The notes below the pieces were generated by a model that saw only the letters and a list, made by a program, of their open reading frames with translations, searched no databases and was not told where the DNA came from. Both the position numbers and the translations under genes were made by a program. DNA of 64,000 bases from Pseudomonas phage sp. 30-2, in sequence record LC727697.1; one strand, written 5' to 3'. Positions 11,719-58,639 of the stretch are shown in pieces (within the stretch, counting starts at the first letter, position 1; the number at the start of each line of letters is the position of its first letter).

Positions 11719-12110
11719 GTAAATTAGTTCTATAATAAATTTATCATAATCTTAATAAAATCTTTATAATATTTCAAATTCTCTTTATATATTTTTTGCC
11801 TATTACATATATGCAAGCACAACTGAGTACAATAACGTTTAAGTAAGAAAACCACCACATTTTTATAAATTTATGAAACCGGGTTTGCTTGTGGTTTTGT
11901 TTGTGTAACATACTATATGGAAATAGTGTGCTGTATGATACTACATTGTATAAAAACAATGATAATATGTTTCCTATAACATAAACGAATAGTATAACTG
12001 GAAGATAATGTAACATAACATTTTATTGTCTTATTTGACACAAACAAGCATACAATACTGCCCCTGTGCATTAAATACAATGCAAAATAAAAAGCATAGT
12101 AGATGTGCTT

Positions 12111-12207
12111 AAAACACGCAAATTTGCGCTATAGCGCGTTTTGCATGCGTAGTATTAGCTATGTATTGTAAAGCATAAAAACACGCAAATTTGCGCTAAT
12201 TTAGCGC
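12111..12207. promoter_or_regulatory. two identical 21-mers with palindromic GCGC cores (operator-like)
   Basis: AAAACACGCAAATTTGCGCTA at 12111-12131 and 12177-12197. Each contains the palindrome CGCAAATTTGCG, and the adjacent palindromes GCGCTATAGCGC and GCGCTAATTTAGCGC lie in otherwise AT-rich DNA. Confidence 0.4.
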
Positions 12208-12254
12208 TTATATACAGCTATGCTACAGCGCTTTAAGTAGCTAAAACTAGTCAA

Positions 12255-12285
12255 CAAAAAAGGGGCTTATAAGCCCCTTTTTTGT
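12255..12285. terminator. palindromic rho-independent terminator
   Basis: AAAAAAGGGGCTTATAAGCCCCTTTTTTG, immediately 3' of the VWA gene. Confidence 0.65.
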
Positions 12286-12297
12286 TTTAACCTACGA

Positions 12298-13482
12298 TTA
12301 TTCGTCGTAGTCGATGGTGATGCCAAACGGTGCAGTTACACCCTTGCGACCGTGGTTTATAAACACGGTATCGCAATAGTTAGGATCGCCGTAGTCATAC
12401 ACTTCCATGTCAGTGAAGAATACCAGCTGATGTGGCGGTTCGGTGAGCGTATCTTTAAGGAAGTTAAACACAGCCACAAAATCGGTACCGCCGCCGCCTT
12501 TGAGGGGATACTCATAGATTTCGTCTGCATTGTCGGGAGTATATTTTCGGAATTCATACACTCTAGTATCAAACGTTAGCACTTGTATGGAAAAGTCACT
12601 AAACTGTTCCATAATTCCTAACACTTCTCCTAAGAAATCCCTTAGCTGAGAAGAGCTAATCGAACCAGAGGCGTCTAGTGCCAAGATAACATCAATTTTG
12701 TCATCGACAATCTGACCCGGCAGAGTCGCACCAGTTCCCCAGCTCTTCCGCGACGGACGAGTCCACATATAGTCGGATTTAATGTGCGACGGAATAGTCT
12801 GGTTTAGCAATTCGCGCCAATCTAGTTTAGGTTCAGTGATGTCACTGATCATCTGACGCACACCTGCCGGAGTGTTGCCGACACCAGCAGCTTTAGCAGC
12901 CTGAAGAACAGCTTCAGTGATCTCGTCCCGAAGAGCAGCTTGCTCATCTGCAGACATAGGGATAGGACCGGATTTGCCAGTGCCGTCGCCGTCTTCATTC
13001 CCGGCACCACCCGGTTCGAGGTGAACGTCGAAGCTATCTTTATCTTTTAGTGACGGATCTTTCTTAATTAGTTCGTAGATCTGGTCAGCGGACATTCCGC
13101 GGTACTTTTCATCAAAGCACGGCTCGCACGTACCCGGACGGTGGATAAGCTTGCCGATCTTCATATCGTGCAATTCGAGGTTGATAACAAAGTCGGCAGC
13201 ACAGTTCCACAGTTTAGGCTCTCTGCTGCCGCGCCGCCCCATGTGGTCGTAGACGACGTGCATTACCTCATGACCGATGAGGAAGATAAGTTCCTTATCG
13301 TCCAAGTCTTCGAGGAACTTGGTATTATAATAAAGATGGCGTCCATCAGTACCGGCAGTAGGGCACCAGTCGTTCGCCTCGACTAGTTTAAGGCGCAGCG
13401 CCAAGGTCCCGAAAAACGGATGGTTCAACAGCAACTGAACACGGGCGCGGATGATGCGTTCTTCTAGGGTTTTAGTGGACAT
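12298..13482 (-). CDS. VWA-domain protein with N-terminal HExxH metallopeptidase-like domain (DUF2201-type MoxR partner; 'CobT-like')
   Basis: HEVMHVVYDH zinc motif and a VWA MIDAS motif DASGS (ILALDASGSISS), which is the family normally paired with MoxR ATPases. Conspicuously GC-rich. Confidence 0.8.
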   Translation of the reverse strand: MSTKTLEERIIRARVQLLLNHPFFGTLALRLKLVEANDWCPTAGTDGRHLYYNTKFLEDLDDKELIFLIGHEVMHVVYDHMGRRGSREPKLWNCAADFVINLELHDMKIGKLIHRPGTCEPCFDEKYRGMSADQIYELIKKDPSLKDKDSFDVHLEPGGAGNEDGDGTGKSGPIPMSADEQAALRDEITEAVLQAAKAAGVGNTPAGVRQMISDITEPKLDWRELLNQTIPSHIKSDYMWTRPSRKSWGTGATLPGQIVDDKIDVILALDASGSISSSQLRDFLGEVLGIMEQFSDFSIQVLTFDTRVYEFRKYTPDNADEIYEYPLKGGGGTDFVAVFNFLKDTLTEPPHQLVFFTDMEVYDYGDPNYCDTVFINHGRKGVTAPFGITIDYDE

Positions 13483-13537
13483 ATAATGCTCCGTTAAAAT
13501 GATATGTTTTGTGTTACGTTACAAGTATAACATTATG

Positions 13538-15046
13538 CTAGCGTACCTGCAATGTATATTTGTAATTGCCGCAATCGTAATATTTTAAATAACCTAAACT
13601 ATCCATTATTTCTGATTCGCTTAGATGTAAATTATTTTTATTAGAAATCTTAGATTTTATGAAATTAGATCTATGATATTTTATGTTGTCTTTTATATAC
13701 CAATAACCTGTATTTCTGTCATTCTTGGTTACATTTGTAAACCCGAGCTGTTTATATAAATTTCCATCTGACCAACACCTGTCTGCATATGTAATAATAG
13801 ATTTAGGGGAATATGTTTTTATGAAATATTTAAGAAGTTTGCTGGCTCCTCCTACAACAGTATTTTTGCTAGCATATCTAAGTAATTCATATTCCTCTTT
13901 TGTATATCTAGATTTCCCAAATGTCATTACGGCTACTAACAAATTCTCATTGTCGTATAGACCTAGTCTTACAGATGATTGACAAGAACCTTGGATGTGA
14001 GTTTCTTCTAAAAAAGTTAAAGATTCGTTAAATGTTATTTCTTTTATGGTTGTATTCCTTGCATATATTCTATCACTACAACCTAAAATAGATTTTAACC
14101 TTGATTTTATTATGTCTTGTTTTGATATCCAATCTACATCTAAAATTTGTATTAACTTTATTCCTTTATCTCTGCATTCTATAAATTTATCTACATGATA
14201 TGATTTTTTTCTGTGTTTTGTAGAATGCCAATAACAACCATTATATTCTATTGCTATGTTTGTACCTTTAATTACTATATCTAATTCTTTGTTAGATAAT
14301 ATAGATCGGTCATTGTTAATCACATCAAAACCTAGCGATACTATATAGTTAGATATTTCATTTTCGCCGGCAGACTTTGTTAAAGGATTACAAACATTGC
14401 ACCTCGGAGTAGACCCATAATCTACGTGTCCGATTACTATATTTCCGCATGCATTGCATACCCAGTCATACACATTTTTTCTAAAGCACCCTTCGTACTC
14501 GTCTATACTAAACGTAGGGGTGAGTATGTTAGAAAGTCGTTCTACTACTTTTTTATATCCCAATTCCTTTATAGTTCTATGATCTGGCTTTATATGTTTT
14601 TTACTTAATTGCTGTTTTGCAATAATATCTTTTGACTTAGATGGATTATCGACACCGTATTTTTCTATCCAAGTTTTTATCCTTTTTGTTTTCATACTTT
14701 CTTTTCCGGATTGTGTCATGCCTGGATGATTTTTTAAAGACCATTCCATATGGCATTTACATTTACTTTTATTTCCGCAAAATCCGTATTGGGTTTGTTT
14801 TGTATCTTTATTTCGCTTTAGTGTCCGTTTGTTATCATACTTACAGTAAACATTATCAGCCGGATTTAAGTATATATGAATCCTTTCTGTCACAGAAACG
14901 TCGTCACGAAGAAAGGAATTAGTTCGACGAACTAATTCCTCATATATTTCTTTTTTACTTTTTACTACATTTCCTAATGCGTTAGGATTTGTATTTTTTA
15001 TGAGTTCTTTTAATTCTATATCAAAGTTATCCATTATTCGTGCCAA
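13538..15046 (-). CDS. free-standing homing-endonuclease-like protein (Vsr/PD-(D/E)xK-like nuclease with Cys/His zinc-ribbon modules)
   Basis: IEYNGCYWHSTKH nuclease motif plus Cys-rich modules (CNACGN...H..C..C). Paralogous to ORF 30881..32569, which carries AIEYNGLYWHSSKH. Confidence 0.7.
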   Translation of the reverse strand: MARIMDNFDIELKELIKNTNPNALGNVVKSKKEIYEELVRRTNSFLRDDVSVTERIHIYLNPADNVYCKYDNKRTLKRNKDTKQTQYGFCGNKSKCKCHMEWSLKNHPGMTQSGKESMKTKRIKTWIEKYGVDNPSKSKDIIAKQQLSKKHIKPDHRTIKELGYKKVVERLSNILTPTFSIDEYEGCFRKNVYDWVCNACGNIVIGHVDYGSTPRCNVCNPLTKSAGENEISNYIVSLGFDVINNDRSILSNKELDIVIKGTNIAIEYNGCYWHSTKHRKKSYHVDKFIECRDKGIKLIQILDVDWISKQDIIKSRLKSILGCSDRIYARNTTIKEITFNESLTFLEETHIQGSCQSSVRLGLYDNENLLVAVMTFGKSRYTKEEYELLRYASKNTVVGGASKLLKYFIKTYSPKSIITYADRCWSDGNLYKQLGFTNVTKNDRNTGYWYIKDNIKYHRSNFIKSKISNKNNLHLSESEIMDSLGYLKYYDCGNYKYTLQVR

Positions 15047-15387
15047 GTATAAAATGTGGGTACCTTTTTATATACTATTTTTATAATATCGGCGTCTACA
15101 TACATATTTAATGCATTTATGGCATCGTTTAGTGTTCTAAATCCAAACTCTTTGTCAAACATAACTAAACCAGAATGTGTTATTTTAAAAGAAAGAAATT
15201 TATATTTTATTTCAGGAATATATACATATTCTATATTAGAGGTACCATATATAATTACATTAGCTGAAATCTTTAGTGACTTATTTAATATCTTACATGT
15301 TATTATTCTGAGACTTATATATAGTATAGTCATAACTGTTATTAATGCAGCTATGAAAATAGAATATATAATCTCGCTGACGATCAT
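15034..15387 (-). CDS. small membrane protein
   Basis: 117 aa with an N-terminal TM helix (IIYSIFIAALITVMTILYISL). Confidence 0.45.
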   Translation of the reverse strand: MIVSEIIYSIFIAALITVMTILYISLRIITCKILNKSLKISANVIIYGTSNIEYVYIPEIKYKFLSFKITHSGLVMFDKEFGFRTLNDAINALNMYVDADIIKIVYKKVPTFYTWHE

Positions 15388-15842
15388 ATTAATTTTTTCC
15401 TTTTTTTAAACACAACTTTATTATATTCTGTCTCTGTGTATTGTTTATATATATGTTCTACTTCTTTTAGTGCTTTTTCTAATGAATCATACGAACTATG
15501 TATATGTCTTCTTATAGAAAATCTATTTTGTTTTATATTAAAATAAAATATTTCGGACAGCCATATCTTTTTTATAAAATATAATGTAGGTTTACCTTTT
15601 CTTTTTATAGCTTCTATTTCGAATGAAGTAAAATATTTATTTTCAGATATTTCGCAGAGAATCATCAAATAAAACAATATCGCAATCCCGCATATACTGA
15701 CAGACAGTACACATACTATTAAAGGTATTATTACTAGTGCCAGTACGACATGTTCTTGGTATTCTAGAATAATGCATATAGTAATCAATACAGCAAATAA
15801 AGGTACTAATATTAAACATATGTTACTGAACGGAAGTCTCAT
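15384..15842 (-). CDS. small membrane protein
   Basis: 152 aa with 2-3 N-terminal TM helices. Confidence 0.45.
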   Translation of the reverse strand: MRLPFSNICLILVPLFAVLITICIILEYQEHVVLALVIIPLIVCVLSVSICGIAILFYLMILCEISENKYFTSFEIEAIKRKGKPTLYFIKKIWLSEIFYFNIKQNRFSIRRHIHSSYDSLEKALKEVEHIYKQYTETEYNKVVFKKRKKLI

Positions 15843-15843
15843 A

Positions 15844-16299
15844 CTACTTAGTACCTTTACTAGATTTTATTACAGTAGTAATGGCGCTGCTCTTTTTATA
15901 TAGCTCAGCTTGGTCTTCATACCTTTGGAATGTGTTAAGTGCCAATGATTCTGAATTAGTATAGAAATTCGCATAAATAGGAAGACAGCAAAAAGAATTG
16001 TCATGAAAATCGTAATAATATGTTTCACCTAATACATTTAATTTTAAAATATATTTTGTTGAGCTCCCTCTTTGCTTGTCTAAAACGACTTCTAGTTTAT
16101 AAAAACTAAATCTCTTTATATAAAAAAATTCTGCTATGATTTTTCTGTATACACAAGAAATTAATGATATAACACACTGATTAGGAACTGCAACAAGCAT
16201 ATAAATTAATGGCACGTTAGTAACATACATATATATTACAGAAAGAATATTTACTAATGTCATTATAATGACAAACAAAGATGAAGTTAGTGTTCTCAT
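15844..16299 (-). CDS. small membrane protein
   Basis: 151 aa with two N-terminal TM helices and a soluble C-terminus. Confidence 0.45.
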   Translation of the reverse strand: MRTLTSSLFVIIMTLVNILSVIYMYVTNVPLIYMLVAVPNQCVISLISCVYRKIIAEFFYIKRFSFYKLEVVLDKQRGSSTKYILKLNVLGETYYYDFHDNSFCCLPIYANFYTNSESLALNTFQRYEDQAELYKKSSAITTVIKSSKGTK

Positions 16300-16332
16300 T
16301 CTATAATTCTGTATCCTATTAATATATAAAAT

Positions 16333-16360
16333 AAAAGGGGCTTTAAGCCCCTTTTATTTT
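16333..16360. terminator. palindromic rho-independent terminator
   Basis: AAAAGGGGCTTTAAGCCCCTTTTATTTT. Confidence 0.65.
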
Positions 16361-16368
16361 GCCCTTAC

Positions 16369-17484
16369 TTAGTTCGAGTCGACAATAAACTTGCCGTACT
16401 CTTGGAAGAACTTAGTGAAGCAAGGGATCAACTTTCTGTTGATCGGCAGTTGGTATTCGCGCAACGCAGTACGCGCGCCGAGGATGACCATTTCTTGGGC
16501 AAAGTTGTTCATCATGTACTCGAAGAACAAGTTTACCGACTTGTGCCAATCCTCGGTAGTGTACTTTTTGTCGGCGTCAGCTACGTCAGCCAGCCACTCT
16601 TTTAGAGTGTAGCACATACTGACCACGAGCGAGTAACGAGCACTGATCTCTTCGACTTTGAGATCGGTTACCCGGCCGGTTAGCACATCTTCCGGCTTCG
16701 GAAGCTGCGAAGCATACTTCATGTGCTGCATGAAGGAGTAGCTGTGACTTTCGCCGACGGTTCCTGCGATAGTCGCACGTAGCAGGTGGTCCTTGTTGAT
16801 TCCTGCGAGCTGGAGGATGTCGGACACGAACTTCCAGGCTCGCGGAGTAGCAAACGCCTTGCTACGATCTTGGGGATCGAAGCAGAACAGGTTCTGCTTG
16901 TGCTGAGTGAGGTAGCCGACTACATCCGGGTGTACCGTGTTGTTAAGCGCCCACTGCTGCCAGTCCTCGAAGTTGGTTTCGATCTGCAAGTGAACGAAAC
17001 GGTTGGCCAACGGACTAGGCATACGATAAGTAACGCCCTTGTCGGTATCGCGGTTACCAGCAGCGACAATGTCGACGCCATCGGGCAGCTTATACGAACC
17101 GATGGCACGGTTCAGGATGAGCTGATATGCAGCGCCCTGCACGCTCGCCGGCGCCGAGTTCATTTCGTCCAGGAACAGGATGGCGTTGTCCAGGGTAGTT
17201 TCGCCGGGTTGCGGAAGATCGGACGGAATAGCCCAGCGCATGGTATTGGTTTTCGGATCGTAGTACGGAATGCCCTTAATATCAGTGGGATCCATGAGGA
17301 TCAGACGCATGTCGATGACCGGACGGTCAGCCTCGAAACCCAACTGGGCGATGATATCCGACTTGCCTACCCCCGGCGGACCCCAGAGGAACACAGGACG
17401 CTTCGCCTTGAACATGCCGCGGATAATTGCAGCACACTCCGTCGGACGAAGATACGTTTCTACGATGTTTTCTTTTTTAGCCAT
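16369..17484 (-). CDS. cobS: CobS/MoxR-family AAA+ ATPase
   Basis: Walker A GPPGVGKSD, Walker B ILFLDEMN and overall CobS-like architecture; GC-rich, which is why several spurious antisense ORFs are listed there. Confidence 0.85.
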   Translation of the reverse strand: MAKKENIVETYLRPTECAAIIRGMFKAKRPVFLWGPPGVGKSDIIAQLGFEADRPVIDMRLILMDPTDIKGIPYYDPKTNTMRWAIPSDLPQPGETTLDNAILFLDEMNSAPASVQGAAYQLILNRAIGSYKLPDGVDIVAAGNRDTDKGVTYRMPSPLANRFVHLQIETNFEDWQQWALNNTVHPDVVGYLTQHKQNLFCFDPQDRSKAFATPRAWKFVSDILQLAGINKDHLLRATIAGTVGESHSYSFMQHMKYASQLPKPEDVLTGRVTDLKVEEISARYSLVVSMCYTLKEWLADVADADKKYTTEDWHKSVNLFFEYMMNNFAQEMVILGARTALREYQLPINRKLIPCFTKFFQEYGKFIVDSN

Positions 17485-17674
17485 CTATAATGCCTCTGTG
17501 GTTGAATATGTTTTGCTGTTTAACACCTACATTTTACAGCTTGTAGCTTTTAAAACAACACATAATTAACAATTTTTATGAATGCTATTATTTGTTGTTT
17601 TGCAAAGCAGGATGTTATTAAAGCAAATAACTATATAGTTAGTCAACATAGTAAAACGTAATTTTTTAATCATT

Positions 17675-17706
17675 AAAAAAGGGCAATTATAGCCCTTTTT
17701 TCTTTT
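17675..17706. terminator. palindromic rho-independent terminator
   Basis: AAAAAAGGGCAATTATAGCCCTTTTTTC. Confidence 0.6.
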
Positions 17707-18238
17707 TTCTCTTAAAATATTTAGGAAGTCTAAATGTAGGATACCAGCAGGAGCCACGCGGACCGGAATGCCTAGGATAAGCATATCGTTTTCTTTTATC
17801 TTTGCTGTCTTTATATAGTTTAACACCTGTATTATAAAATGATGATCTTTTACTGCTAATTGTTTCTTCCCCGATACAGCGATCATTTCTTTTTTTACAT
17901 GTATTATTTTTATGTTGTTTTGGTTTTCTTTTGTTAAACGAAGAATGAAATATTTCATAATCGGGTGTTTTATTTATAAACCGATAAGATATAGAAACTA
18001 ACTCAGCAACAAACATATAAAATACTTCATTAAGCACAGGGATAGTATCTAAATATTCTGGTTTATTTTGCAATAATTGCATTATTTTGAGAATAATTAA
18101 GAAACTCGCTATAATAGGATTAAAAACTACATTTCCTACTAGTAATATATAAAATGATAGATTCTTAAAATCATACATTTTATTTCTGTGTGTCATCAAA
18201 AACCATTTAATGTAATATTTCATTTTTATACTATTCAT
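17687..18238 (-). CDS. membrane protein with basic C-terminus
   Basis: 183 aa with TM segments and a Lys/Arg-rich tail. The overlapping ORF 17566..17958 reads through the terminator and is rejected. Confidence 0.45.
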   Translation of the reverse strand: MNSIKMKYYIKWFLMTHRNKMYDFKNLSFYILLVGNVVFNPIIASFLIILKIMQLLQNKPEYLDTIPVLNEVFYMFVAELVSISYRFINKTPDYEIFHSSFNKRKPKQHKNNTCKKRNDRCIGEETISSKRSSFYNTGVKLYKDSKDKRKRYAYPRHSGPRGSCWYPTFRLPKYFKRKKKKGL

Positions 18239-23248: not shown

Positions 23249-24121
23249 TTACCTACCTAGTTGATCGTCACCCCAGGTTAATACGTGAACACGCAAACTA
23301 ACATTCCATTCGTATTCGAAGATAGCTTTATCTGCAAGTCTTCCAATTACCGGGTCTGTTTGTTGGGAATAAATGCCCCCGACTGGCATAACCCACACAT
23401 CTGGTAAATACCCATCGGCATTTAATGTGTCTACTATACTTTTTGCTTGATCCCACGATCGCTGATCTTCATTTACTACAAATTTTAGATAGCTATCCGG
23501 TGCAATATCTATATATTCCTTCATTAAATTTATATGGATAGCTCGTTTGGGTTGTTCACCTGCTACATGAAGTAGTTTAGGTGACATAGAAAAATAAAAT
23601 TGCACACCGATCGATTTGCATCTGTTAACTAAATCGATTAAGCATTTTTCTAACGGTCTAGTTGTATTTGTTTCTATTCCTATCCATGCAGGATAATCAT
23701 TAGTATCTATCCAATAATTTACTATATCTACTATAGATTCTTGGTTTACTAACGGTTCTCCGCCCGTAAATACATGACCTATTTTTTTACCAAATGTTTT
23801 ACTAGGAATTAATTGTTTTATTTCATTTGCAACTACAACAGGATCGACTTCTGTTGCAAGATGTTTAAATTTAGCAAATACAGAATAGTCTGAATCACAT
23901 CCATATTTAGGAGTCGGTAATTGTTTATAATCTGTAATGTTTGTTACATCTATTAAATCCGGTCGTTGTTCTACCCATGTTTCGGGATTTCCAGGTTCTT
24001 TTTGTCCAAAGCCCCTACATTGCAACGAACATCCGAAAAATCTAAGCCAAGTGCATAGTTTTCCGGTATGTAGGCTTTCTCCCTGGACTGAGAAAAACTT
24101 TTCAGTATATCTGTGTTTCAT
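23249..24121 (-). CDS. queE: QueE-like radical-SAM enzyme (7-carboxy-7-deazaguanine synthase homolog)
   Basis: FSVQGESLHTGKLCTWLRFFGCSLQC aligns to the QueE N-terminus (IQGEG...FVRTAGCDYSCSWC); also FTGGEPL, IETNTT and a C-terminal RVHVLTWGD. The Cys spacing is C-x7-C-x3-C, with Phe where the third canonical Cys would be. Confidence 0.7.
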   Translation of the reverse strand: MKHRYTEKFFSVQGESLHTGKLCTWLRFFGCSLQCRGFGQKEPGNPETWVEQRPDLIDVTNITDYKQLPTPKYGCDSDYSVFAKFKHLATEVDPVVVANEIKQLIPSKTFGKKIGHVFTGGEPLVNQESIVDIVNYWIDTNDYPAWIGIETNTTRPLEKCLIDLVNRCKSIGVQFYFSMSPKLLHVAGEQPKRAIHINLMKEYIDIAPDSYLKFVVNEDQRSWDQAKSIVDTLNADGYLPDVWVMPVGGIYSQQTDPVIGRLADKAIFEYEWNVSLRVHVLTWGDDQLGR

Positions 24122-24191
24122 ACATAATCCGCTTTATTTTATAATATACATTATAAACGCAATCATACTAAAAGTAAAGAATAACTTTATA

Positions 24192-24626
24192 TTAAATAAA
24201 TTGTTTAAATTCAAAACTTACCGAATCATGGTAACTTATTTCATCATGATAAAAATCTACAATTGTATTATTTCTTGTTGCAAATATTGATGCTACTCTA
24301 ATTTTACTAATGTCTTCTTTCGTAAAAAAGAATTCGTCTTCTAACAAAGAAATAACAGAATTTACAGTATTGCCTGTATCGATAACATCATCTACGATAA
24401 TGCATTCAGAACTTATGTCATTATTTGTACTAAAACAATCTTCTACCGGATCGTATGTTACAATGGGGCAATCATAATAATAGCTAATCATAGTGGCAGG
24501 AATTAGTCCACCTTTGCTAATAGCAATAATAACTTTAGGAGAAATTCCTGCTTCGTCTATATCACTAACCAAGTCACTGACAATAACTGGCATTTGATCC
24601 ATTGATACAAAATTTTTATCGTACAT
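24192..24626 (-). CDS. type-I phosphoribosyltransferase, xanthine-guanine PRT-like
   Basis: VIIAISKGGLIP...CIIVDDVIDTGNT matches Gpt IIAVSRGGLVP...FIVIDDLVDTGGT, the PRPP-binding motif. Confidence 0.7.
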   Translation of the reverse strand: MYDKNFVSMDQMPVIVSDLVSDIDEAGISPKVIIAISKGGLIPATMISYYYDCPIVTYDPVEDCFSTNNDISSECIIVDDVIDTGNTVNSVISLLEDEFFFTKEDISKIRVASIFATRNNTIVDFYHDEISYHDSVSFEFKQFI

Positions 24627-24637
24627 ATAATATCTCC

Positions 24638-25156
24638 TTAAAATATATAAAAGTGTTTACTTAATTCTAAATACGGTTGTACTAATTCTATAATGTGTTG
24701 TTCATTATTCTTATCTAACAAATTATATATTTTTGAATTAATTCCTGTCGATTTAGAAAATTCTTCTAAATAGTCTTTATTAGTGTTATTAGAGAGTTTT
24801 AAAAAGGCATCATTATTTTCTGCACTTTTATTTCTAAATACTATTATTTCTTTTATAGAAGTATTTTTTAATACTGATAATAAGTTTATAAATTGAATAC
24901 TATTGTGGTAGAAATGTTGTTGTAATGTATTGCTTTTTTCTACAGCACAATGAATAAGCGTGTCTGCATCAGACTCGAGTATTATATCTTCTGCGATACT
25001 AGATGCATAGCTAGTTTGATAAAAATTAGTTATGTAACTATTTTTTGAATTAATTAAATCAAATCCCACTACATTATATCCTAATGTATAATAGTATTTG
25101 CTTACTGTTTTACCAACATAACCGTTACAACCAGTAATAATGACACGCATTGCCAT
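24638..25156 (-). CDS. short NAD(P)-binding Rossmann-fold protein (truncated epimerase/SDR-like)
   Basis: N-terminal VIITGCNGYVGK (GxxGxxG) motif; only 172 aa. Confidence 0.5.
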   Translation of the reverse strand: MAMRVIITGCNGYVGKTVSKYYYTLGYNVVGFDLINSKNSYITNFYQTSYASSIAEDIILESDADTLIHCAVEKSNTLQQHFYHNSIQFINLLSVLKNTSIKEIIVFRNKSAENNDAFLKLSNNTNKDYLEEFSKSTGINSKIYNLLDKNNEQHIIELVQPYLELSKHFYIF

Positions 25157-25417
25157 TTACTCTTTTTTCTCCGTACCGTTTATGATAGATAATATGACTT
25201 CGTATTCGTCATATGCAGATTTTAATGCAGGATATTTTTCTGAAAGTAATTTATCTACTTCTAACATGCACAACATTTTTTCTATCTGTTCTATCTTTTT
25301 CCTCAATACTGAAAGTTCTGTATCATACATGCCTAGATCCGTTAATCCGGAGTAGCTAGCTGGCATAGAGTTTATCGTTGTAGTAGTATATATTCCCGAC
25401 AGTTGTTTATTATACAT
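25157..25417 (-). CDS. hypothetical small protein
   Basis: 86-aa ORF whose stop abuts the next start. Confidence 0.4.
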   Translation of the reverse strand: MYNKQLSGIYTTTTINSMPASYSGLTDLGMYDTELSVLRKKIEQIEKMLCMLEVDKLLSEKYPALKSAYDEYEVILSIINGTEKKE

Positions 25418-25431
25418 AATAGCATCCTTGC

Positions 25432-25809
25432 TTATTTGAAAAATTCTAAAACAGCTTTATTAATATTGTCTTCTGCCACTGTAATCACAACGTCCCTGTT
25501 AGGATATACAATGTTAATTTGTTCATATAATTCTTCTGCCATTGTTTCACAAGATTTACCATCTAGTTTTAGCAGAGATTCACTATACAGTCTTTCTAAG
25601 AACCGTCTAAATTGAATAAATTCGATATCTCGTTCATTATGAAAAACTTCAATTTTAACAGTAAAATAAAAATAATGAAAATGAGGATATCCTAAAAAAG
25701 ATACATCTTTCCAATCATTTGTAGCTAGTGCAGGGTTACTATCTGCACCCAGGTACATGTGAATTCCTTCTTTCTGAAAAGGAACTTCGATCCATCGTTT
25801 AATTCCCAT
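25432..25809 (-). CDS. hypothetical protein
   Basis: 125-aa ORF; QueD identity was considered but HGH motifs are absent. Confidence 0.45.
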   Translation of the reverse strand: MGIKRWIEVPFQKEGIHMYLGADSNPALATNDWKDVSFLGYPHFHYFYFTVKIEVFHNERDIEFIQFRRFLERLYSESLLKLDGKSCETMAEELYEQINIVYPNRDVVITVAEDNINKAVLEFFK

Positions 25810-25893
25810 AAAAATAATCCTTATTTTTAATTTTGTAATATTATAATGTTTTCGTATTAAAATGTAAATTGTATGCAGAATATTAAATGGAAA

Positions 25894-26955
25894 TTATTTT
25901 AAAATTCTTTTATACAACTCTGTTCCGTTATAATATTTGTTTAATTCGGGCAGTAAATTAAGTTTCATTTCTTCTACTATAAAATTATAATTACGCATAG
26001 TATAATCTATTAGGGTAACTAAATTTTTTAGGTCTGCCAGATTTTCCGAAATAGTCCATTCATTTGGATATACATACAAATTTCTGTTTTTTACATTTTC
26101 TGTCATTTCTTTATAAGACAATCGGTCAGGCAATAATGGAATTGCACCGACTAATGCACCTTCGTAGAAACCTATACCCAATGTTTCCTGCAACGAAGCC
26201 GAAAAGACAATTTTAGAACGTTTAAGAAGTGTATGGTATTCTGCCTTTGATAATTTAGTTTCTTGTGCAAAAACAAACTCGTAGTTAGGAAGTAATGATC
26301 TTAATTTTTTAAATATATTTGGTTGTTTTTCCGGAGAAATTCGATGAGGAAATAATACAGTATCTGTCTTGTTAGTAGAAGGTGTAAGTTGGTCAACTAA
26401 ATATTCCATTGGCCAACCTACTATATCGTGTCTGTTTATGTTAGCTGTTTTACCAAAAAGGTTATCTATCATGAGATCTTTACTAAAATTAGTTGCATAG
26501 AAATTCACATCATATATATTATATAACGATCTTTCAAATTCATATGACCAATTTTTATCAAAGTGCCTTCCTAAAAAATCATGCGGATCATACGAACCGG
26601 CGTGCCACAACCCCATTATTTTAAATTTTTTATTCATTAACGATCGCATGTAATTTAGTTGAACTACTGTGGGATTCCATGCGTCTGTATAGAGAACAAC
26701 ATCGTTATCGTTTAAAGTTTCTATTATACTTGCTAATTTAATGAATTGATTGCATTTGAATATGTTTGTATTTGCAAAGTTAAGGAAGGCACCCGCAGAG
26801 GTGCCTTCGTCAACATAATCTACATCAATTTGAACTATTTCTGCATCGAGACCGGATTCGTTTATATACTTTTCTAGTTGCGGTTTAAGAAACGTATTCC
26901 ATTCTGACGTATACCGAGTTTCTATTGATTCGATTGGGATTATTATAACTTTCAT
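25894..26955 (-). CDS. GT-B fold glycosyltransferase (family-1/GT4-like)
   Basis: FPHRISPEKQ and ETLGIGFYEGALVGAIPL correspond to the E-x7-E / nucleotide-sugar-binding region of GT4 enzymes. Confidence 0.65.
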   Translation of the reverse strand: MKVIIIPIESIETRYTSEWNTFLKPQLEKYINESGLDAEIVQIDVDYVDEGTSAGAFLNFANTNIFKCNQFIKLASIIETLNDNDVVLYTDAWNPTVVQLNYMRSLMNKKFKIMGLWHAGSYDPHDFLGRHFDKNWSYEFERSLYNIYDVNFYATNFSKDLMIDNLFGKTANINRHDIVGWPMEYLVDQLTPSTNKTDTVLFPHRISPEKQPNIFKKLRSLLPNYEFVFAQETKLSKAEYHTLLKRSKIVFSASLQETLGIGFYEGALVGAIPLLPDRLSYKEMTENVKNRNLYVYPNEWTISENLADLKNLVTLIDYTMRNYNFIVEEMKLNLLPELNKYYNGTELYKRILK

Positions 26956-28577
26956 TAATTGTCTAATCCTTGTTCTAATTCGGTTAGTTTTTCGTCGTTT
27001 ATGTCTGCAAATTTATTTTCATCTTCGATTGCAGTAGCATCTACATCAAAAAGACTGTTAAATGAGTTTGAGTTATAATTGCCGAAACTAATGCTGTCTA
27101 GCATAGGTCTATAATCTTCTAATAATTGTCGCTTATTAGGAGTACTCGGATCTAGCAATACTTCTACAAAATGATCAAAATATAAAATCGAACTAGGGAC
27201 GTGATTACTTACTTCTATAGTACCTTTCTTTTTATCTCTAGTCCAATCTCGGTAATCTACTTTAACTCGCAACCGTTCTATATCAACTAATCTATTAGAT
27301 TCTTGGATTGCAGCTATATGATTGTAAACATTGTGATTCATTATTAATAAGTAACTAAGTGAATCCCAACTGGTTTTACCTACTTTACCATTTTTATTTG
27401 CACTCGGTGGCACGTATTCTGCATCTTTTCCTTCTTTGAGAGCAGTTTCTACATCTTCTTTTGTAAAGTTTGCATTTTTAACACCATTTATTATACCATA
27501 ACCATTGTGATATGGACATATGTCTTTTAATGATAATTTTTCCATAATAGGACTCATAAACGGCATAGGAATATCCTTATCACTAAACTCTCTGCTGTCC
27601 GGAGCAGAATCCATATTATATCCCCACCGTTTGGGATTAAAATAATTATAGTTATATGCAAGACCGTATGCCACAGAAACAAACGGAGAAGCTGCGTCAA
27701 AACTTATGTTAATATTGGGATTATAATGTTTTCTTATATTTCGCTGAATAGATGTTAAGAAACAAGCCCAATCAGTCCTGCCTAGTCCGAGAAAGTGTAT
27801 CCAGTTTTTATCTGAAATAATATTATCATCTATTAAATCTAAGAATCGAGAAAGAGCACAATACATATTTCTCATGTTTATACCAGCAAATGCATACCCT
27901 TCGAGTGTATGACTAGCCGGATATCCCATTTCTACTACTTTAGCTGGGTCACTAAATGCTTTTACGTTGTCGTACCAAATTTTAGATGTATCTACATCTG
28001 ATCCCGATAATACACTAAGGAATTTAGTTGCGCCAGGAGTTCTGTTCTTCATGTAATAATGTAAATTATGAAGAGAATAATCTAATGTATCTTCAAATTT
28101 ATTAAGACCGGTTTTTGAACTGTACGGAGGAGTAGCAGCAAACGCAGGAACATCTAGTGTCATTGACCAGTCGGCGGTATGTTCACACCATTTTAAAATT
28201 TCATTTCTTATTTTATCTCCGCTAGCTCCTTTAAAATCATCCCAGTTTAATTTAATTACACCGGTAGCTACCTGGAAACCACCCGAGTCTGCAATAACTG
28301 TTGTTTGTGTTTTGTCCCTGGCTTGGATCATCCATTCTTTTGCATCAGTTCTAGATAAAGACAGTTCTGCATGGCCTGCAGAATATAACCCATACCCGTA
28401 AAAGAATGTATCGCTAGATGGATCTAAAAAATTAAGAGTATTATATCCATTAGGAAAGCTAGGTATTTTTCTTGTAGACGGATCGTTAATAGAACTGTCT
28501 AATTGTTTTGTGTAAAACCCACTAATTGCAGGCAAATAGATCGCATAATCTTTTTGACTGTTTGATAAATTTTTCAT
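26955..28577 (-). CDS. tRNA-guanine transglycosylase-family protein (DpdA-like DNA 7-deazaguanine transglycosylase), 540 aa with C-terminal extension
   Basis: VIADSGGFQV carries the TGT catalytic DSGGFQ motif; the start overlaps the GT stop (ATGA). Confidence 0.7.
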   Translation of the reverse strand: MKNLSNSQKDYAIYLPAISGFYTKQLDSSINDPSTRKIPSFPNGYNTLNFLDPSSDTFFYGYGLYSAGHAELSLSRTDAKEWMIQARDKTQTTVIADSGGFQVATGVIKLNWDDFKGASGDKIRNEILKWCEHTADWSMTLDVPAFAATPPYSSKTGLNKFEDTLDYSLHNLHYYMKNRTPGATKFLSVLSGSDVDTSKIWYDNVKAFSDPAKVVEMGYPASHTLEGYAFAGINMRNMYCALSRFLDLIDDNIISDKNWIHFLGLGRTDWACFLTSIQRNIRKHYNPNINISFDAASPFVSVAYGLAYNYNYFNPKRWGYNMDSAPDSREFSDKDIPMPFMSPIMEKLSLKDICPYHNGYGIINGVKNANFTKEDVETALKEGKDAEYVPPSANKNGKVGKTSWDSLSYLLIMNHNVYNHIAAIQESNRLVDIERLRVKVDYRDWTRDKKKGTIEVSNHVPSSILYFDHFVEVLLDPSTPNKRQLLEDYRPMLDSISFGNYNSNSFNSLFDVDATAIEDENKFADINDEKLTELEQGLDN

Positions 28578-28649
28578 TATATTCCTTAATTATTCTTTAG
28601 TGCATATGTATTTAGGTTAATTCATTTATAAATGAAAAATATAGGGCAA

Positions 28650-28910
28650 TTATTGCCCTATATCATATATTTTTAATGTTCTTTTTGCCCATACACTTAG
28701 TTGTTCACACAACTCTTTTTCGGATTCTTGTTTATAATACAAATTGTCTGTTTTCTTAATACGCTCGAATATAATTTTTTCTTTCTTTGTAAAAAATATA
28801 TATTTTCTGTATACAAGAGTAACTGTAGTTATTGGTCTACCTATAGAATTGTAAGATTCCTGTACAATATAGTATTGCAATTTAACTAATTTACGAGCAG
28901 GTAAGATCAT
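28650..28910 (-). CDS. hypothetical protein
   Basis: 86-aa ORF. Confidence 0.35.
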   Translation of the reverse strand: MILPARKLVKLQYYIVQESYNSIGRPITTVTLVYRKYIFFTKKEKIIFERIKKTDNLYYKQESEKELCEQLSVWAKRTLKIYDIGQ

Positions 28911-29740: not shown

Positions 29741-30880
29741 TTACCAACCAAACAGCGAATCGAAGTGTGCAGCAGCTTCTTCTGTTTTACTAAAATCCCA
29801 TTTTAGAATACCTAAAAGGTTCTTAACTTTGTTATCTACTACTTTTTCTCTCATTAAATCTTCATCAAATGGCAAAGACGTAAACCATTCTGGTAAGTGC
29901 AATTCATCTACAGGATATGCTATACTAGTAAAATGATTGTCTGCGGTTTCTTTTAAATAACAAACAACACATTTTTGACCATCTGAGATTTTAGGAGTAT
30001 GTAGGTCTTTATTGATAAGCTTTAGTTTATTCCAATTCATCGCAGCAGACACGTGACCAGGGACAGTGATTCTAGACTCTCTTCCTGCTAACTTTTTATT
30101 CATGTGTTCTTCTAATTTATCTTCATATGTACTGATACCGTTGACGCCTTTTGGCATTCCCTTTTCCCACGGTTTCATTTTATTAAATTCTTTTTTAAAT
30201 TCTCTAATATATTCTATTACTTCATCTTCTGTTTTATGTGTTAGCACCATAACTAGAATTTCCATGAGGAATGTTTGGACAAATTTAGGCGTATCTGACC
30301 GACGTAAGTCTAAACCCATTGCTTTTACTTTTCCTGGGCTGTTTTCGTCGTCGTATCTAGTACCTTCTTTATCATACATCATAGCAGCATAACGTTTCTT
30401 TTTAATAAAAAGACCAGAAGTAGCTACAATTTCCCTACCTGACTTAATAACACCTTCTGAGTTTTTATATGGAACATTAAATGTTTGTTTTAAAAATTCT
30501 GGAAATGTATCACTTACTTGTGACGAAACGTTGTCGTATAATTTAATGACAGTATCTTTATCCCATTCCATTTCGCCAGATTCTACAAGGTCTTTTACTG
30601 CAGGCCATGCAGTAAAATAGCAAGAATTGTGAACTAATATATTATTTCCAAAGAAATACGGATTATCGGGATTTTTCATCCCTATATCGTATACATATTG
30701 TTTCTTTTTTCCTAAATTAGTTACTTTAGATACCTTTCCTAAAGACACATTAAATTTATTAGGATCTCTTTCTTTTATATTTTTGTTTAATTCTTCTAGC
30801 GCTCTTTTTGCACTTTTATATTCTTCGTCTTCTGTTTTTGCAGAAAATACACCTAAAAGGTGTTTTGTTAGATTATGCAT
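29741..30880 (-). CDS. DNA polymerase B C-terminal fragment preceded by intein C-half (IntC)
   Basis: Residues 1-85 end in KKQYVYDIGMKNPDNPYFFGNNILVHN, the intein blocks F/G with a terminal HN. The extein starts SCYFTAWPAV and contains the polymerase KKKRYA motif; its C-terminal region aligns with T4 gp43. Confidence 0.85.
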   Translation of the reverse strand: MHNLTKHLLGVFSAKTEDEEYKSAKRALEELNKNIKERDPNKFNVSLGKVSKVTNLGKKKQYVYDIGMKNPDNPYFFGNNILVHNSCYFTAWPAVKDLVESGEMEWDKDTVIKLYDNVSSQVSDTFPEFLKQTFNVPYKNSEGVIKSGREIVATSGLFIKKKRYAAMMYDKEGTRYDDENSPGKVKAMGLDLRRSDTPKFVQTFLMEILVMVLTHKTEDEVIEYIREFKKEFNKMKPWEKGMPKGVNGISTYEDKLEEHMNKKLAGRESRITVPGHVSAAMNWNKLKLINKDLHTPKISDGQKCVVCYLKETADNHFTSIAYPVDELHLPEWFTSLPFDEDLMREKVVDNKVKNLLGILKWDFSKTEEAAAHFDSLFGW

Positions 30881-32569
30881 TTATAAATCCTTTGTATAAA
30901 CAATATTTCCCGAATCCCAAATCCTGCCATATCCGTTTGCGTAAATATTTTCTACTACGCTAACCGAATTATTATAATTTTTTAATTTAACTTTTGCCTT
31001 GTCTTTAGAGAAAGATAATCTATTATATGTATCTTTGAAGTCAGTATAATAAAATCCAGGAGCTATTATTGAAGTTTTAGCAAATCCGTTTTTTTCATAA
31101 ACGTTTCCTACGGACCAGCGCCTATTTGCATATGATACTATCTTGCCTGTAAAATTACAAGAAACTACCTTTAATAATTTAGAAAACCCACCTATTACAC
31201 TTGTGTTATTTAGGTTACAAAATCTTACTATTTCCCAGTTTGCATTTTTATTAAACCTGGGCTTTGCAATTGTTAATAAAGAAACTAATTGATCCGAATA
31301 ATACAATCCGTATGCATGCCGAAATTGTGCATGACCTTGCAAATGATTCGTTTCGGCGAATTGCTTTGCATCATCGAACTTAACTTCTTTAATTTCTGTT
31401 TTTCTTGCATATATTTTATTAGATAAACCTAGTTTATTTTTTATTACTGAGATCCATATATCTTTTTTAGTATGCCATTCGTTGTCGAAAATGTGTAATA
31501 ATTGGATATTATTTTGTTCACATGTAGTGGTTTTATCAAGGTGGTATGTTTTATATTTTTGATCAGTTTCTATATGTTTAGAAGAATGCCAATAAAGTCC
31601 ATTATATTCTATTGCAAGATTTTTACTAGGAACATATATGTCTAATTCGAACCCGAATCTATTGTATGAATGAATTGTATCTGAGCAATAAGATTTAACT
31701 AAATCGAATATTTCTATTTCTGCCTTAGACCTGTATGTAGTTTCTGCTACTTTATCTAAACCGCATTTCTGACAACCGTGTCCGGCAGTATGATAGTATG
31801 ATATAAGGTTAAAGTCGCCGTGTACCGGGCATGTTATAATAACTTTATCTCTAATGTTAGTGTATATAGTTTTAGTATAGTCATAAAAATTATTATGAAC
31901 GTTATTACTTCTTTCTATGAAAGAATCTGTGTCATATGATAATCTATGACCGATGGCTTCGAACGAGCATTTTTTACAACCGTGACCTGATTGATGGACG
32001 TTTGCTTTTTGTTTAAATATTCCATGTATTGGACATTTAATAGATACATCTTTTGTTAAGAATGTAAAATCAGTAGATACAGAATAATCATAAAAATTAT
32101 TATGTATTTTAGAACACTGCGTTTTCCAGTTATTGAAGTTATCTAGACTTACTTTACGCTCAGCTGAACATTTTTGGCATTTGTGACCTTTTAGTCTAGA
32201 ACTAAGTTTTTGAACAATTATGCCGTGTTTAGTGCATCTGTATGTTATATTGTCAGATGTCGGAATATATCCATCCCACACACAATATATGTATTGGTCA
32301 TCATCTATGCATTTTATAAATTTATCAAATGAATACTTGTGTTTATTATATTTGCATTCTGTGTGATATTCTGCTTGTTTTGCCGAAACAGTTATTCTAT
32401 TACCACATTCTTTACATACAGGCGGCGATATTCCTTCTATATAATACTTGAATGCAACCCATTTATCAAATACGGGCTCATACAAAGAAAGAATACGATT
32501 GTATTCTTTCTTATTATTCTTTTTTAATTCTTTTGCGTATGACTGATAATAATCTTTATTCATATACAA
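30881..32569 (-). CDS. free-standing homing endonuclease (Vsr-like nuclease plus three HNNFYDY...CP.HG.F...GHGC.KC zinc-ribbon modules) between the intein halves
   Basis: AIEYNGLYWHSSKH and triplicated Cys/His modules. It starts 14 nt inside the upstream polymerase ORF and stops immediately before the ATG of the downstream polymerase ORF. Confidence 0.75.
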   Translation of the reverse strand: MYMNKDYYQSYAKELKKNNKKEYNRILSLYEPVFDKWVAFKYYIEGISPPVCKECGNRITVSAKQAEYHTECKYNKHKYSFDKFIKCIDDDQYIYCVWDGYIPTSDNITYRCTKHGIIVQKLSSRLKGHKCQKCSAERKVSLDNFNNWKTQCSKIHNNFYDYSVSTDFTFLTKDVSIKCPIHGIFKQKANVHQSGHGCKKCSFEAIGHRLSYDTDSFIERSNNVHNNFYDYTKTIYTNIRDKVIITCPVHGDFNLISYYHTAGHGCQKCGLDKVAETTYRSKAEIEIFDLVKSYCSDTIHSYNRFGFELDIYVPSKNLAIEYNGLYWHSSKHIETDQKYKTYHLDKTTTCEQNNIQLLHIFDNEWHTKKDIWISVIKNKLGLSNKIYARKTEIKEVKFDDAKQFAETNHLQGHAQFRHAYGLYYSDQLVSLLTIAKPRFNKNANWEIVRFCNLNNTSVIGGFSKLLKVVSCNFTGKIVSYANRRWSVGNVYEKNGFAKTSIIAPGFYYTDFKDTYNRLSFSKDKAKVKLKNYNNSVSVVENIYANGYGRIWDSGNIVYTKDL

Positions 32570-57940: not shown

Positions 57941-57949
57941 GTGTACCCC

Positions 57950-58639
57950 TTACGAGATTGTGTATGGTTTTGCTTTGTACGTTAGTAGTATACTAGTATC
58001 GCTACTTTTAGTCAAACGAACTTTTGTGAACATGTTGACAGTTATATACAAATGACCTGTTATGGTTTCTAAAATATTGTTTACTGTATATGTATTCTTA
58101 ATACCTTTGTTCTTCACTAGTATTTTAGATCCAGATACAAATGATGTAGGTATACCTACTTTTATCTTATTTCCGTACGGATGCTCAACTATTATTTCTG
58201 TGCCCATAATTATGTCGAGACTTTCTACAGAAATAGTTGCATATACATCTATGCCATTTTGAGCTATAGAAAATGTATCATGTATGAATATTACGGTAAC
58301 TAATAATATAGAATTGTTTACTATTATTATTTTTTGTGAATTATGAGGGAAATGTGGCGGAATTTCTATAATAAATTTATGATTAGCTGTCTTGAATTTG
58401 CCGCCTTTATTTTGGTATTTTAATGGAATATATACTGTATCTGTGTATTGTTCTGTTTTAATAGAAATCCATTTTATTGCATATTCGTATGCTTCCCTTA
58501 CTTGTTTAAACATGTTTTCTGCATCTTTATCTTTATTTCTGTCAGGATGATATTTTGATGCAAGTTTTCTGTATGCAGTCTTTATCTGTTTTTCTGTGGG
58601 ATTAGCAGATACGCCAAGGATTGTTTGCCAATTCTTCAT
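57950..58639 (-). CDS. J-domain (DnaJ-like) protein
   Basis: N-terminal J domain [31 protein letters not shown] with the HPD motif. Confidence 0.75.

Follow-up and report, generated by a model that had tools for sequence, protein, structure and literature searches.

The 5.3-kb locus at positions 23249-28577 of Pseudomonas phage sp. 30-2 DNA (LC727697.1; the window analysed was the whole stretch of 64,000 nucleotides) is probably the Wroclawvirus copy of a gene module that replaces a context-dependent subset of the guanines in DNA by a 7-deazaguanine derivative after replication. The locus was 99.8% identical to Pseudomonas phage Deifobo and 98.6-99% identical to PA5oct, Paride, MIJ3 and further Wroclawvirus jumbo phages. 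It was filled by seven co-directional open reading frames (ORFs) on the minus strand, with intergenic gaps of 0-84 nt, encoding in order of transcription proteins of 540, 353, 125, 86, 172, 144 and 290 aa. That a deazaguanine system exists in PA5oct is already known. What appear to be new compared with the literature searched are the DpdL homolog in this cluster, the Cx3Cx39C motif of its QueE-like protein, and the recognition of a GT4-type glycosyltransferase (GT), a 170-aa protein and, less often, a phosphoribosyltransferase (PRT) and an epimerase as conserved members of the module. A first-pass annotation, made from the sequence alone, had listed five of the genes, encoding a protein of the tRNA-guanine transglycosylase (TGT) family, a glycosyltransferase, a short Rossmann protein, a PRT and a QueE-like protein. 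All five proved to be real, and two ORFs had been overlooked, at 25432-25809 (125 aa) and 25157-25417 (86 aa).

Iyer et al. (2021) listed PA5oct with a deazaguanine synthesis and incorporation system. [quoted passage not shown] The resistance to half of the enzymes, together with the GA/GG context, points to site-selective insertion after replication.

The gene at 26955-28577 (minus strand) encodes the 540-aa protein, a predicted DpdA-like DNA-guanine transglycosylase. It belongs to a divergent family with a TGT fold, for which at least 1605 proteins of ~520 aa were found, many of them encoded on contigs of 100-390 kb. The motif D97-S-G-G-F-Q102, which had led to its first assignment to the TGT family, was invariant in 34 homologs, and six TGT-family barrel motifs had invariant counterparts: DSGGFQ (D97), LD142VP, LSGS, FAG232, HFLGLG and SFD294AAS. 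We take D97 and D294 to be the equivalents of D89 and D264 of Tgt, the catalytic and nucleophile Asp. Fold comparison placed the protein among TIM-barrel TGT folds, nearer to DpdA than to generic barrels, with the DNA insertase DpdA as its best structural match. D97SGGFQ102 and SFD294AAS aligned with DSGGLQ and SYDS of the TGT-like gp123 of Acidovorax phage ACP17. With hhalign, the family matched the ACP17 TGT-like type at E 8e-6 and 84% probability, with three barrel motifs aligned; the probability was 27% for DpdA3 of Cellulophaga phage phiST and 17%, in a weak partial alignment, for E. coli Tgt. Neither the single sequence nor the family profile gave a sequence match in the PDB, and the relationship was seen only by fold comparison. 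Grouping with tRNA-specific Tgt rather than DpdA was not observed, so the DpdA part of the reading stands. The modelled protein shows the TGT/DpdA fold, from which we infer DNA base exchange.

Judged by sequence, the 540-aa family differs from the TGTs and DpdAs compared in its greater length, the lack of the zinc motif and its marginal profile similarity; conserved Cys and His residues were limited to H69, H261, C272, C354, H415 and H420. Bacterial DpdA (PDB 7ui4), which inserts preQ0 into DNA in dpd islands, was 13% identical to the phage protein, which has ~130 extra residues and no recognisable CxCxxC..H motif. The bacterial partners DpdB and DpdC are missing in the phage, in which the partners are instead DpdL, the GT and the 170-aa family.

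The cluster is flanked by DNA polymerase and sliding clamp genes on one side and by an RNase H (5'-3' exonuclease) gene on the other, and this placement of the transglycosylase gene within the replication module, from polymerase/clamp to RNase H, was found in PA5oct and in distant relatives. There is, accordingly, very little chance that the TGT-like enzyme acts on phage or host tRNA, with the G-specific restriction resistance having some other cause. Such a role could be suspected from the many phage tRNA genes just outside the window, from a TGT superfamily that is mostly tRNA-directed, and from the five Mom-like enzymes of PA5oct (Iyer et al., 2021). In addition to the gene placement, it is opposed by the best structural match to a DNA insertase and by the link of DpdL-type clusters to 2'-deoxy-7-deazaguanine (dDG) in phiST DNA. 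Mom acts on adenine, not guanine.

The 290-aa product of 23249-24121 (minus strand) had been called QueE-like, and this was borne out by a match to PHROG 2076 ('QueE-like', 6.6e-49) and by a profile of 30 relatives whose top PDB matches were all QueE (6nhl, 3e-11; 4njg, 6.5e-11; 5tgs, 2.6e-8). Invariant residues were Q13 G14 E15, R27, C31, C35, C75-D76, T119-G-G-E-P123 and E150-T-N152. The QGEG loop, Arg27, TGGEP, ETN(G) and CD(S/T) were aligned by profile with 6nhl, 4njg and 5tgs; by reference to the B. multivorans QueE structure, these motifs presumably form the substrate, S-adenosylmethionine (SAM) and catalytic elements and the Mg site. The cysteines of the cluster were C31-x3-C35-x39-C75, all invariant, with C75 ('GCDS') aligned to the third Cys of B. 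subtilis QueE 5tgs (CDYSCSWCDS). The motif had first been read as C-x7-C-x3-C with Phe in place of the canonical third Cys. Phe38 does occupy that position and is invariant; C23, however, is Ser in distant relatives, and the conserved set is C31/C35/C75. In place of the canonical CxxxCxxC or the known variant Cx14CxxC, the multiple alignment gave Cx3Cx39C, and it is this Cx3Cx39C spacing that is new compared with the solved QueEs. Since a 39-residue insertion common to the subfamily shifts the third Cys, no cluster ligand is missing, and the protein is not non-canonical in the sense of lacking one. Among phage QueEs the motif was CNLDCSFCD (CxxxCxxC) in ACP17 and CTHRCFFGEGGWCDS (Cx3Cx7C) in phiST, and the long insertion between the second and third Cys was found in PA5oct, pf16, Ahp1, nt-1 and X1. 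In the Aeromonas phage Ahp1, the QueE-like gene adjoins FolE and DpdL. The NCBIfam equivalog cut-offs for QueE were not reached (best TIGR03963, 41.6 bits vs 260.1), and the 290-aa protein is presumed to be a divergent QueE that synthesises 7-carboxy-7-deazaguanine (CDG).

A QueE-like gene of nt-1, VPFG_00333 (L013:4001-4876), stood beside topoisomerase II, and the subfamily was conserved across KVP40-like Vibrio phages. The name queE_3, used in one record, hints at several paralogs of QueE in a genome.

The 125-aa ORF at 25432-25809 (minus strand) encodes a DpdL homolog, a QueD/PTPS-like T-fold paralog. It matched CGPG_00067 of phiST (1e-7) and gp125 of ACP17 (9e-24) by tblastn, as well as PHROG 17812 (5e-25), and L39GYPHFHYF47 fits the DpdL motif LxxxHRHxF (CxxxHGH in QueD), with Phe replacing Arg. 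Its context was also that of DpdL, with a DpdA-like protein and QueE present and QueC absent. CGPG_00067 is DpdL, a QueD paralog and proposed CDG decarboxylase leading to dDG, which fully replaces dG in phiST (Cui et al., 2023). The DpdL family contained 915 cluster representatives, and one member reached the Pfam gathering score for PTPS. FolE, QueD and QueC were absent from the window in profile and phmmer scans of all six-frame ORFs, and the same scans gave nothing significant for them in the next 42 kb of Deifobo; the best QueD-profile match (E 0.38) was the DpdL ORF. The PTPS gene gp230 was not located in the portion of the Deifobo annotation that was read, which excluded roughly 180 kb of the genome, or by Pfam on ten candidate ORFs. 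The earlier statement that no FolE, QueC or recognisable QueD is present is therefore correct for the canonical genes and had missed the QueD paralog DpdL. QueC was not found in any of 80 related loci either, and its absence from the window and from these loci fits a CDG-branch pathway.

From QueE without QueC, the first-pass annotation had predicted insertion of CDG as its deoxynucleoside (dCDG). With a DpdL homolog in the cluster, tied to dDG in phiST, that prediction loses its basis. In a broader form the pathway would end at CDG, the DpdA-like enzyme would insert dCDG, which might then be decorated on the DNA (e.g. by the GT on the carboxyl), and DpdL would have another role. We regard this as quite unlikely: DpdL occurred in 32 of the 35 loci described below, the DpdL carriers analysed experimentally (phiST and relatives) have dDG with CDG not detectable, and dCDG is known so far only from an archaeal virus whose gene set differs. 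On the other side stand the presence of QueE and absence of QueC throughout the family, the suggestion that CDG may be a common precursor inserted by DpdA3 (Cui et al., 2023), the carboxyl as a target for the GT or for PP-loop and LmbE enzymes found in sister clusters, and the hypothetical nature of the decarboxylase activity of DpdL.

Relatives of the 540-aa protein were found on at least 583 stretches in IMG/VR; 80 loci were analysed, of which 35 had full 10-kb flanks. These 35 loci are related to one another, and the component counts are thus not independent events. A GT was present in 33 of the 35, DpdL in 32, the 170-aa family (that of ACP17 gp122) in 30, QueE in 27, a full-length epimerase in 25, FolE in 24, a PRT in 12, MazG in 5, QueD in 3 and QueC in none. 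The usual order was DpdA-like - 170 aa - DpdL - GT - epimerase - PRT - FolE - QueE. By this comparison the PA5oct cluster is a pared-down version of a module widespread among environmental phages. Its composition had been described as unusual; as a trimmed form of a very common module, in a phage whose system was already listed by Iyer et al. (2021), it is less so than that description implies.

Among cultured phages, ACP17 carries QueD, FolE, gp122, the TGT-like gp123, a GT, DpdL and QueE. The order DpdA - GT - DpdL - QueE is the same as in PA5oct, and the ACP17 GT was 37.6% identical to the 353-aa GT of PA5oct (GT353; 9e-55). The clusters of phiST and ACP17 and that of PA5oct are alike in having a distant TGT/DpdA-like enzyme, DpdL and QueE, in lacking QueC and in lying adjacent to replication genes; phiST differs in having no GT in its cluster. 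PA5oct, in turn, differs from both in its transglycosylase, which belongs to a family separate from the ACP17 type and from phiST DpdA3, in the absence of FolE and QueD from the cluster, in the extra PRT and epimerase remnant, and in the QueE motif (Cx3Cx39C vs CxxxCxxC in ACP17 and Cx3Cx7C in phiST).

GT353, encoded at 25894-26955 (minus strand), has the two-Rossmann GT-B fold and an intact EX7E motif and is a GT-B/GT4-type (retaining) glycosyltransferase, in agreement with the first assignment; its Pfam Glycos_transf_1 score was below the gathering score (18.8 bits vs 26.4). The gene was on the same strand as the DpdA-like gene in 33 of 33 loci, between the DpdA-like gene and QueE in 26 of 26, and no more than 1.5 kb from DpdL in 28. 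This synteny held among phages with just 33-53% identity between their DpdA-like proteins. GT353-family genes also adjoin DpdL in ACP17, Phosso, X1/BUDD and BCSR5, and the GT-DpdL adjacency was kept in ACP17, X1, Phosso and the metagenomic locus L097 despite a different type of DpdA. The GT and the PRT had been noted as lying outside the described phage pathways, and neither appears in the main text of Cui et al. (2023), which makes no mention of a GT, phosphoribosyltransferase, kinase or salvage; no paper linking a glycosyltransferase to a 7-deazaguanine DNA pathway was found in the literature searched. Because the GT and PRT are conserved parts of the module, the earlier hint at a glycosylated or nucleotide-level variant is strengthened.

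It is also conceivable, although unlikely, that the GT (with the epimerase in relatives) is unrelated to DNA and modifies host surface polysaccharide or virion proteins, the final base being plain dDG or 2'-deoxy-preQ0 (dPreQ0). Iyer et al. read phage clusters of GT and nucleoside diphosphate (NDP)-sugar genes as surface-polysaccharide modifiers, phiST achieves full dDG replacement without a GT, and the epimerase has decayed in PA5oct. Such a role would not explain why the strand, the position between the DpdA-like gene and QueE and the proximity to DpdL are kept among such divergent DpdA-like proteins, or why the GT adjoins DpdL in phages with another DpdA type. Furthermore, in a sister lineage DpdL carries a fused sugar deacetylase domain.

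That fusion came from a survey of the top 150 of the 915 DpdL representatives. Among these, six had an N-terminal LmbE/PIG-L-like domain with an AHxDDE motif (PIG-L score below the Pfam threshold), one was fused to a PAPS-reductase-like PP-loop domain, one to a Vut_1 transporter domain and one, a metagenomic protein, to a member of the 170-aa family. We take Vut_1 to be the YhhQ family of queuosine-precursor transporters, and the Vut_1 fusion therefore points to an action of DpdL on the free base. The L097 locus has the order FolE - TGT-like (ACP17 type) - PP-loop - LmbE~DpdL - 137 aa - GT353-family GT, and its parts were found as separate genes in phage X1. The evidence that sugar chemistry is tied to DpdL in two lineages is circumstantial. 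Pairs of a GT4 and an LmbE enzyme are known from mycothiol (MshA/MshB) and bacillithiol (BshA/BshB) synthesis, and X1 and L097 likewise pair the GT353 family with an LmbE/PIG-L-like domain plus a PP-loop ATPase. The logic of these thiol pathways is to transfer, deacetylate and ligate, and it is echoed by the X1 and L097 clusters. PA5oct differs in that no LmbE-like gene was found in the window or in the 80 closest related loci. A further likeness is to the alpha- and beta-glucosyltransferases of T4, which act on hydroxymethylcytosine in DNA: the GT-B fold is common to both, and decoration of an already modified DNA base by a phage enzyme is proposed for the PA5oct GT.

The 170-aa family is a candidate for the missing component of the DpdL pathway. 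Its gene directly follows the DpdA-like gene in most related phages; in this phage group it is Deifobo_0169 (Deifobo 123834-124346; L012:1135-1647), ~1 kb beyond the left edge of the window. The family is marked by the motifs GxEVEHTP, TLFVVG, GANxSF and KIDDxxF..TNPGVW, and no relative was found in PDB, Pfam or PHROG. The ORF at 15387-15866 was considered as a possible member; its match was weak, the product is a transmembrane protein, and the similarity was taken as chance.

The 144-aa protein encoded at 24192-24626 (minus strand) is a minimal and divergent type I PRT of the xanthine-guanine PRT (XGPRT) family, as had been proposed. It matched Pfam Pribosyltran (43.3 bits vs a 26.3 cut-off, 3e-11), carried the phosphoribosyl pyrophosphate-binding loop IIVDDVIDTGNT, and had purine/xanthine PRTs among its PDB matches (Sulfolobus GpT-2, 2.9e-6; E. 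coli XGPRT, 0.017); the NCBIfam equivalog NF006613 gave 37 bits vs a 138 cut-off. The C-terminal aromatic purine-binding motif W..PW(E/D), by comparison with E. coli Gpt, is replaced by SVSFEFK, whereas relatives keep it, and the PRT of PA5oct may be impaired. With relatives in 12 of the 35 loci and in Flavobacterium phage immuto_2-6A, the PRT is not an oddity specific to PA5oct, and its loop deletion was ruled out as a sign of decay by the even shorter immuto PRT. The nearest relatives in cultured phages were those of immuto_2-6A and of Synechococcus phage BUCT-ZZ01, which also has DpdL. In immuto_2-6A the PRT is flanked by QueE and FolE within the fdPreQ1 cluster, a placement like that in the metagenomic version of the module; this cluster differs in having QueF and a formyltransferase, in making a preQ1 derivative, and in lacking DpdL and a GT.

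Two roles are envisaged for the PRT: conversion of excised guanine toward GTP for FolE, or synthesis of a deazapurine nucleotide, as PRTs do in the toyocamycin and tubercidin pathways. Extended to a complete pathway, the second role would yield a 7-deazaguanine ribonucleotide that is reduced, phosphorylated and incorporated by polymerase, with DNA base exchange being secondary. PRTs of the ToyH/TubC type use preQ0/CDG as substrates, and polymerases accept 7-deaza-dGTP well. The PRT relatives in 12 of the 35 loci, the immuto_2-6A cluster of a fully substituted genome, which also carries a deoxynucleoside monophosphate kinase, and the P-loop kinase-like gene and MazG of the phiST cluster would agree with such a route. 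Nevertheless we consider it very unlikely, as the PRT is missing in two thirds of the loci while the DpdA-like gene defines them all, the PA5oct PRT lacks the W..PWE motif, and resistance to only 5 of 10 enzymes with an inferred GA and/or GG context suggests site-selective insertion after replication. Salvage of excised guanine to GTP for FolE, in line with the usual order PRT-FolE, is the simpler role.

Genes for kinase-like enzymes of the nucleotide level were present in two fully substituted genomes and are not discussed in the main text of Cui et al. (2023): gp203 of immuto_2-6A (L098:10621-11145), in the fdPreQ1 cluster and annotated as 'thymidylate kinase', and CGPG_00066 of phiST (L008:7326-7805), a P-loop kinase-like gene in the dDG cluster (AAA_18, 29.8 bits).

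The short Rossmann protein of the first-pass annotation, 172 aa and encoded at 24638-25156 (minus strand), corresponds to the N-terminal half of NDP-sugar epimerases/dehydratases of the short-chain dehydrogenase/reductase (SDR) type (Pfam Epimerase, 5.9e-7, profile positions 1-112 of 240). GxxGxxG is retained; compared with intact relatives of 322 aa, the Tyr of YxxxK is replaced by Phe and ~150 C-terminal residues with the substrate domain are gone. The protein is probably a truncated and inactive remnant.

From these components, the following pathway is proposed. Host FolE and a phage QueD/PTPS encoded elsewhere (gp230 according to PMC12191111) would supply 6-carboxy-tetrahydropterin (CPH4), which the QueE-like enzyme (Cx3Cx39C), by its family and motifs, would convert to CDG. 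The DpdL homolog would process CDG as a free base, the published proposal being decarboxylation to 7-deazaguanine. The 540-aa DpdA-like enzyme, whose fold supports the assignment, would then exchange guanine in DNA for that base. The GT4 would act in the same pathway, most likely by attaching a sugar to the base or to a precursor of it; this step is proposed from synteny and is the least certain. The PRT would recycle excised guanine toward GTP or make a deazapurine nucleotide, and may be impaired in PA5oct, and the 172-aa SDR remnant would be dead and take no step. The DNA would thus most likely receive, after replication, a base of the 7-deazaguanine type, which may plausibly be glycosylated in its final form.

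A more specific version, which we put forward tentatively and at less than an even chance, is that the module makes a sugar-bearing 7-deazaguanine. What DpdL and the DpdA-like enzyme deliver would be decorated by the GT4, which the SDR epimerase would feed in relatives and which, in sister clusters, would have a deacetylase of the LmbE type and a PP-loop ATPase as partners; the 170-aa family and the GT would be the 'missing enzymes' behind the failed attempt to obtain dDG with dpdL and dpdA in E. coli.

Several observations weigh against the proposed pathway. The 540-aa protein had no match in Pfam, NCBIfam or PHROG, including Pfam TGT (PF01702) and the named DpdA1-4 subfamilies, and the CxCxxC..H zinc motif is absent from its family. 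Long-insertion QueE-like relatives in KVP40/nt-1 phages lie outside any que cluster, and the function of this subfamily is therefore not certain. The cluster is eroded in PA5oct, with the epimerase truncated, FolE absent and the PRT lacking its aromatic hood. Expression of dpdL and dpdA of phiST or ACP17 in E. coli gave no dDG, and the decarboxylase role is a proposal for every member (Cui et al., 2023). No paper reporting a modified nucleoside or DNA mass spectrometry for PA5oct was found in the literature searched. As to the sugar, C7 of 7-deazaguanine offers a retaining GT no obvious O- or N-acceptor, and phiST makes dDG without any GT.

The remaining gene of the locus, at 25157-25417 (minus strand), encodes an 86-aa protein that had no family match in Pfam and PHROG scans. 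Relatives at the same syntenic position were found by tblastn in metagenomic loci L006 (1.5e-11) and L004 (2.5e-8), and some related loci keep such a gene immediately upstream of the one for the epimerase. Upstream of the DpdA-like gene, a perfect hairpin with a 12-bp stem and a 3-nt loop followed by a T-run (28638-28664, listed on the minus strand and readable on both strands) resembled a terminator by consensus match; it was placed in the 72-nt gap between the DpdA-like gene and a separate 86-aa ORF at 28650-28910 and is a possible transcription-unit boundary. The locus had been described as one operon, which is a putative reading of the layout; promoter-like sites were not above chance (47 found vs 43.9 expected).

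In the neighbouring region, a 562-aa ORF resembling homing endonucleases split the family-B DNA polymerase gene in two (minus strand; 29741-30880, 30881-32569 and upstream). The same region of vB_Pa-PAC2 is annotated as DNA polymerase / Hef-like homing endonuclease / DNA polymerase, and the polymerase is one 983-aa gene in L004 and L006. Three 2-kb blocks (12001-14000, 16001-18000 and 56001-58000) had a GC content of 0.42-0.45 vs a background of 0.27-0.38; when their coordinates are carried over to vB_Pa-PAC2, they coincide in part with genes annotated there for a Zn-dependent hydrolase with a homing endonuclease, for an ATPase and for a ClpA-like product. The blocks may have been acquired recently. 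Outside the window, Deifobo_0231 (L012:25941-26477) encodes a 178-aa PP-loop ATPase (Pfam ATP_bind_3, TilS-like, 3.6e-29) that lies near the phage tRNA gene array and is not QueC-like by Pfam, and the Deifobo record carries a 'CRISPR' repeat_region at 158039-158336 (L012:35340-35637, also outside the window) amid very small ORFs.

PA5oct-like jumbo phages of Pseudomonas aeruginosa are therapy candidates with a known protection of their DNA at G. The DpdA-like family described here occurs nearly always with DpdL, a GT4 and the 170-aa protein, which suggests that the published DpdL pathway is incomplete, and the module gives a concrete gene set for reconstitution. If a sugar-bearing base is indeed made, it would be the first DNA hypermodification of the purine type to be glycosylated. 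The predicted new class of modified bases would bear on restriction, END-nuclease and glycosylase defences and on the sequencing of environmental phage DNA.

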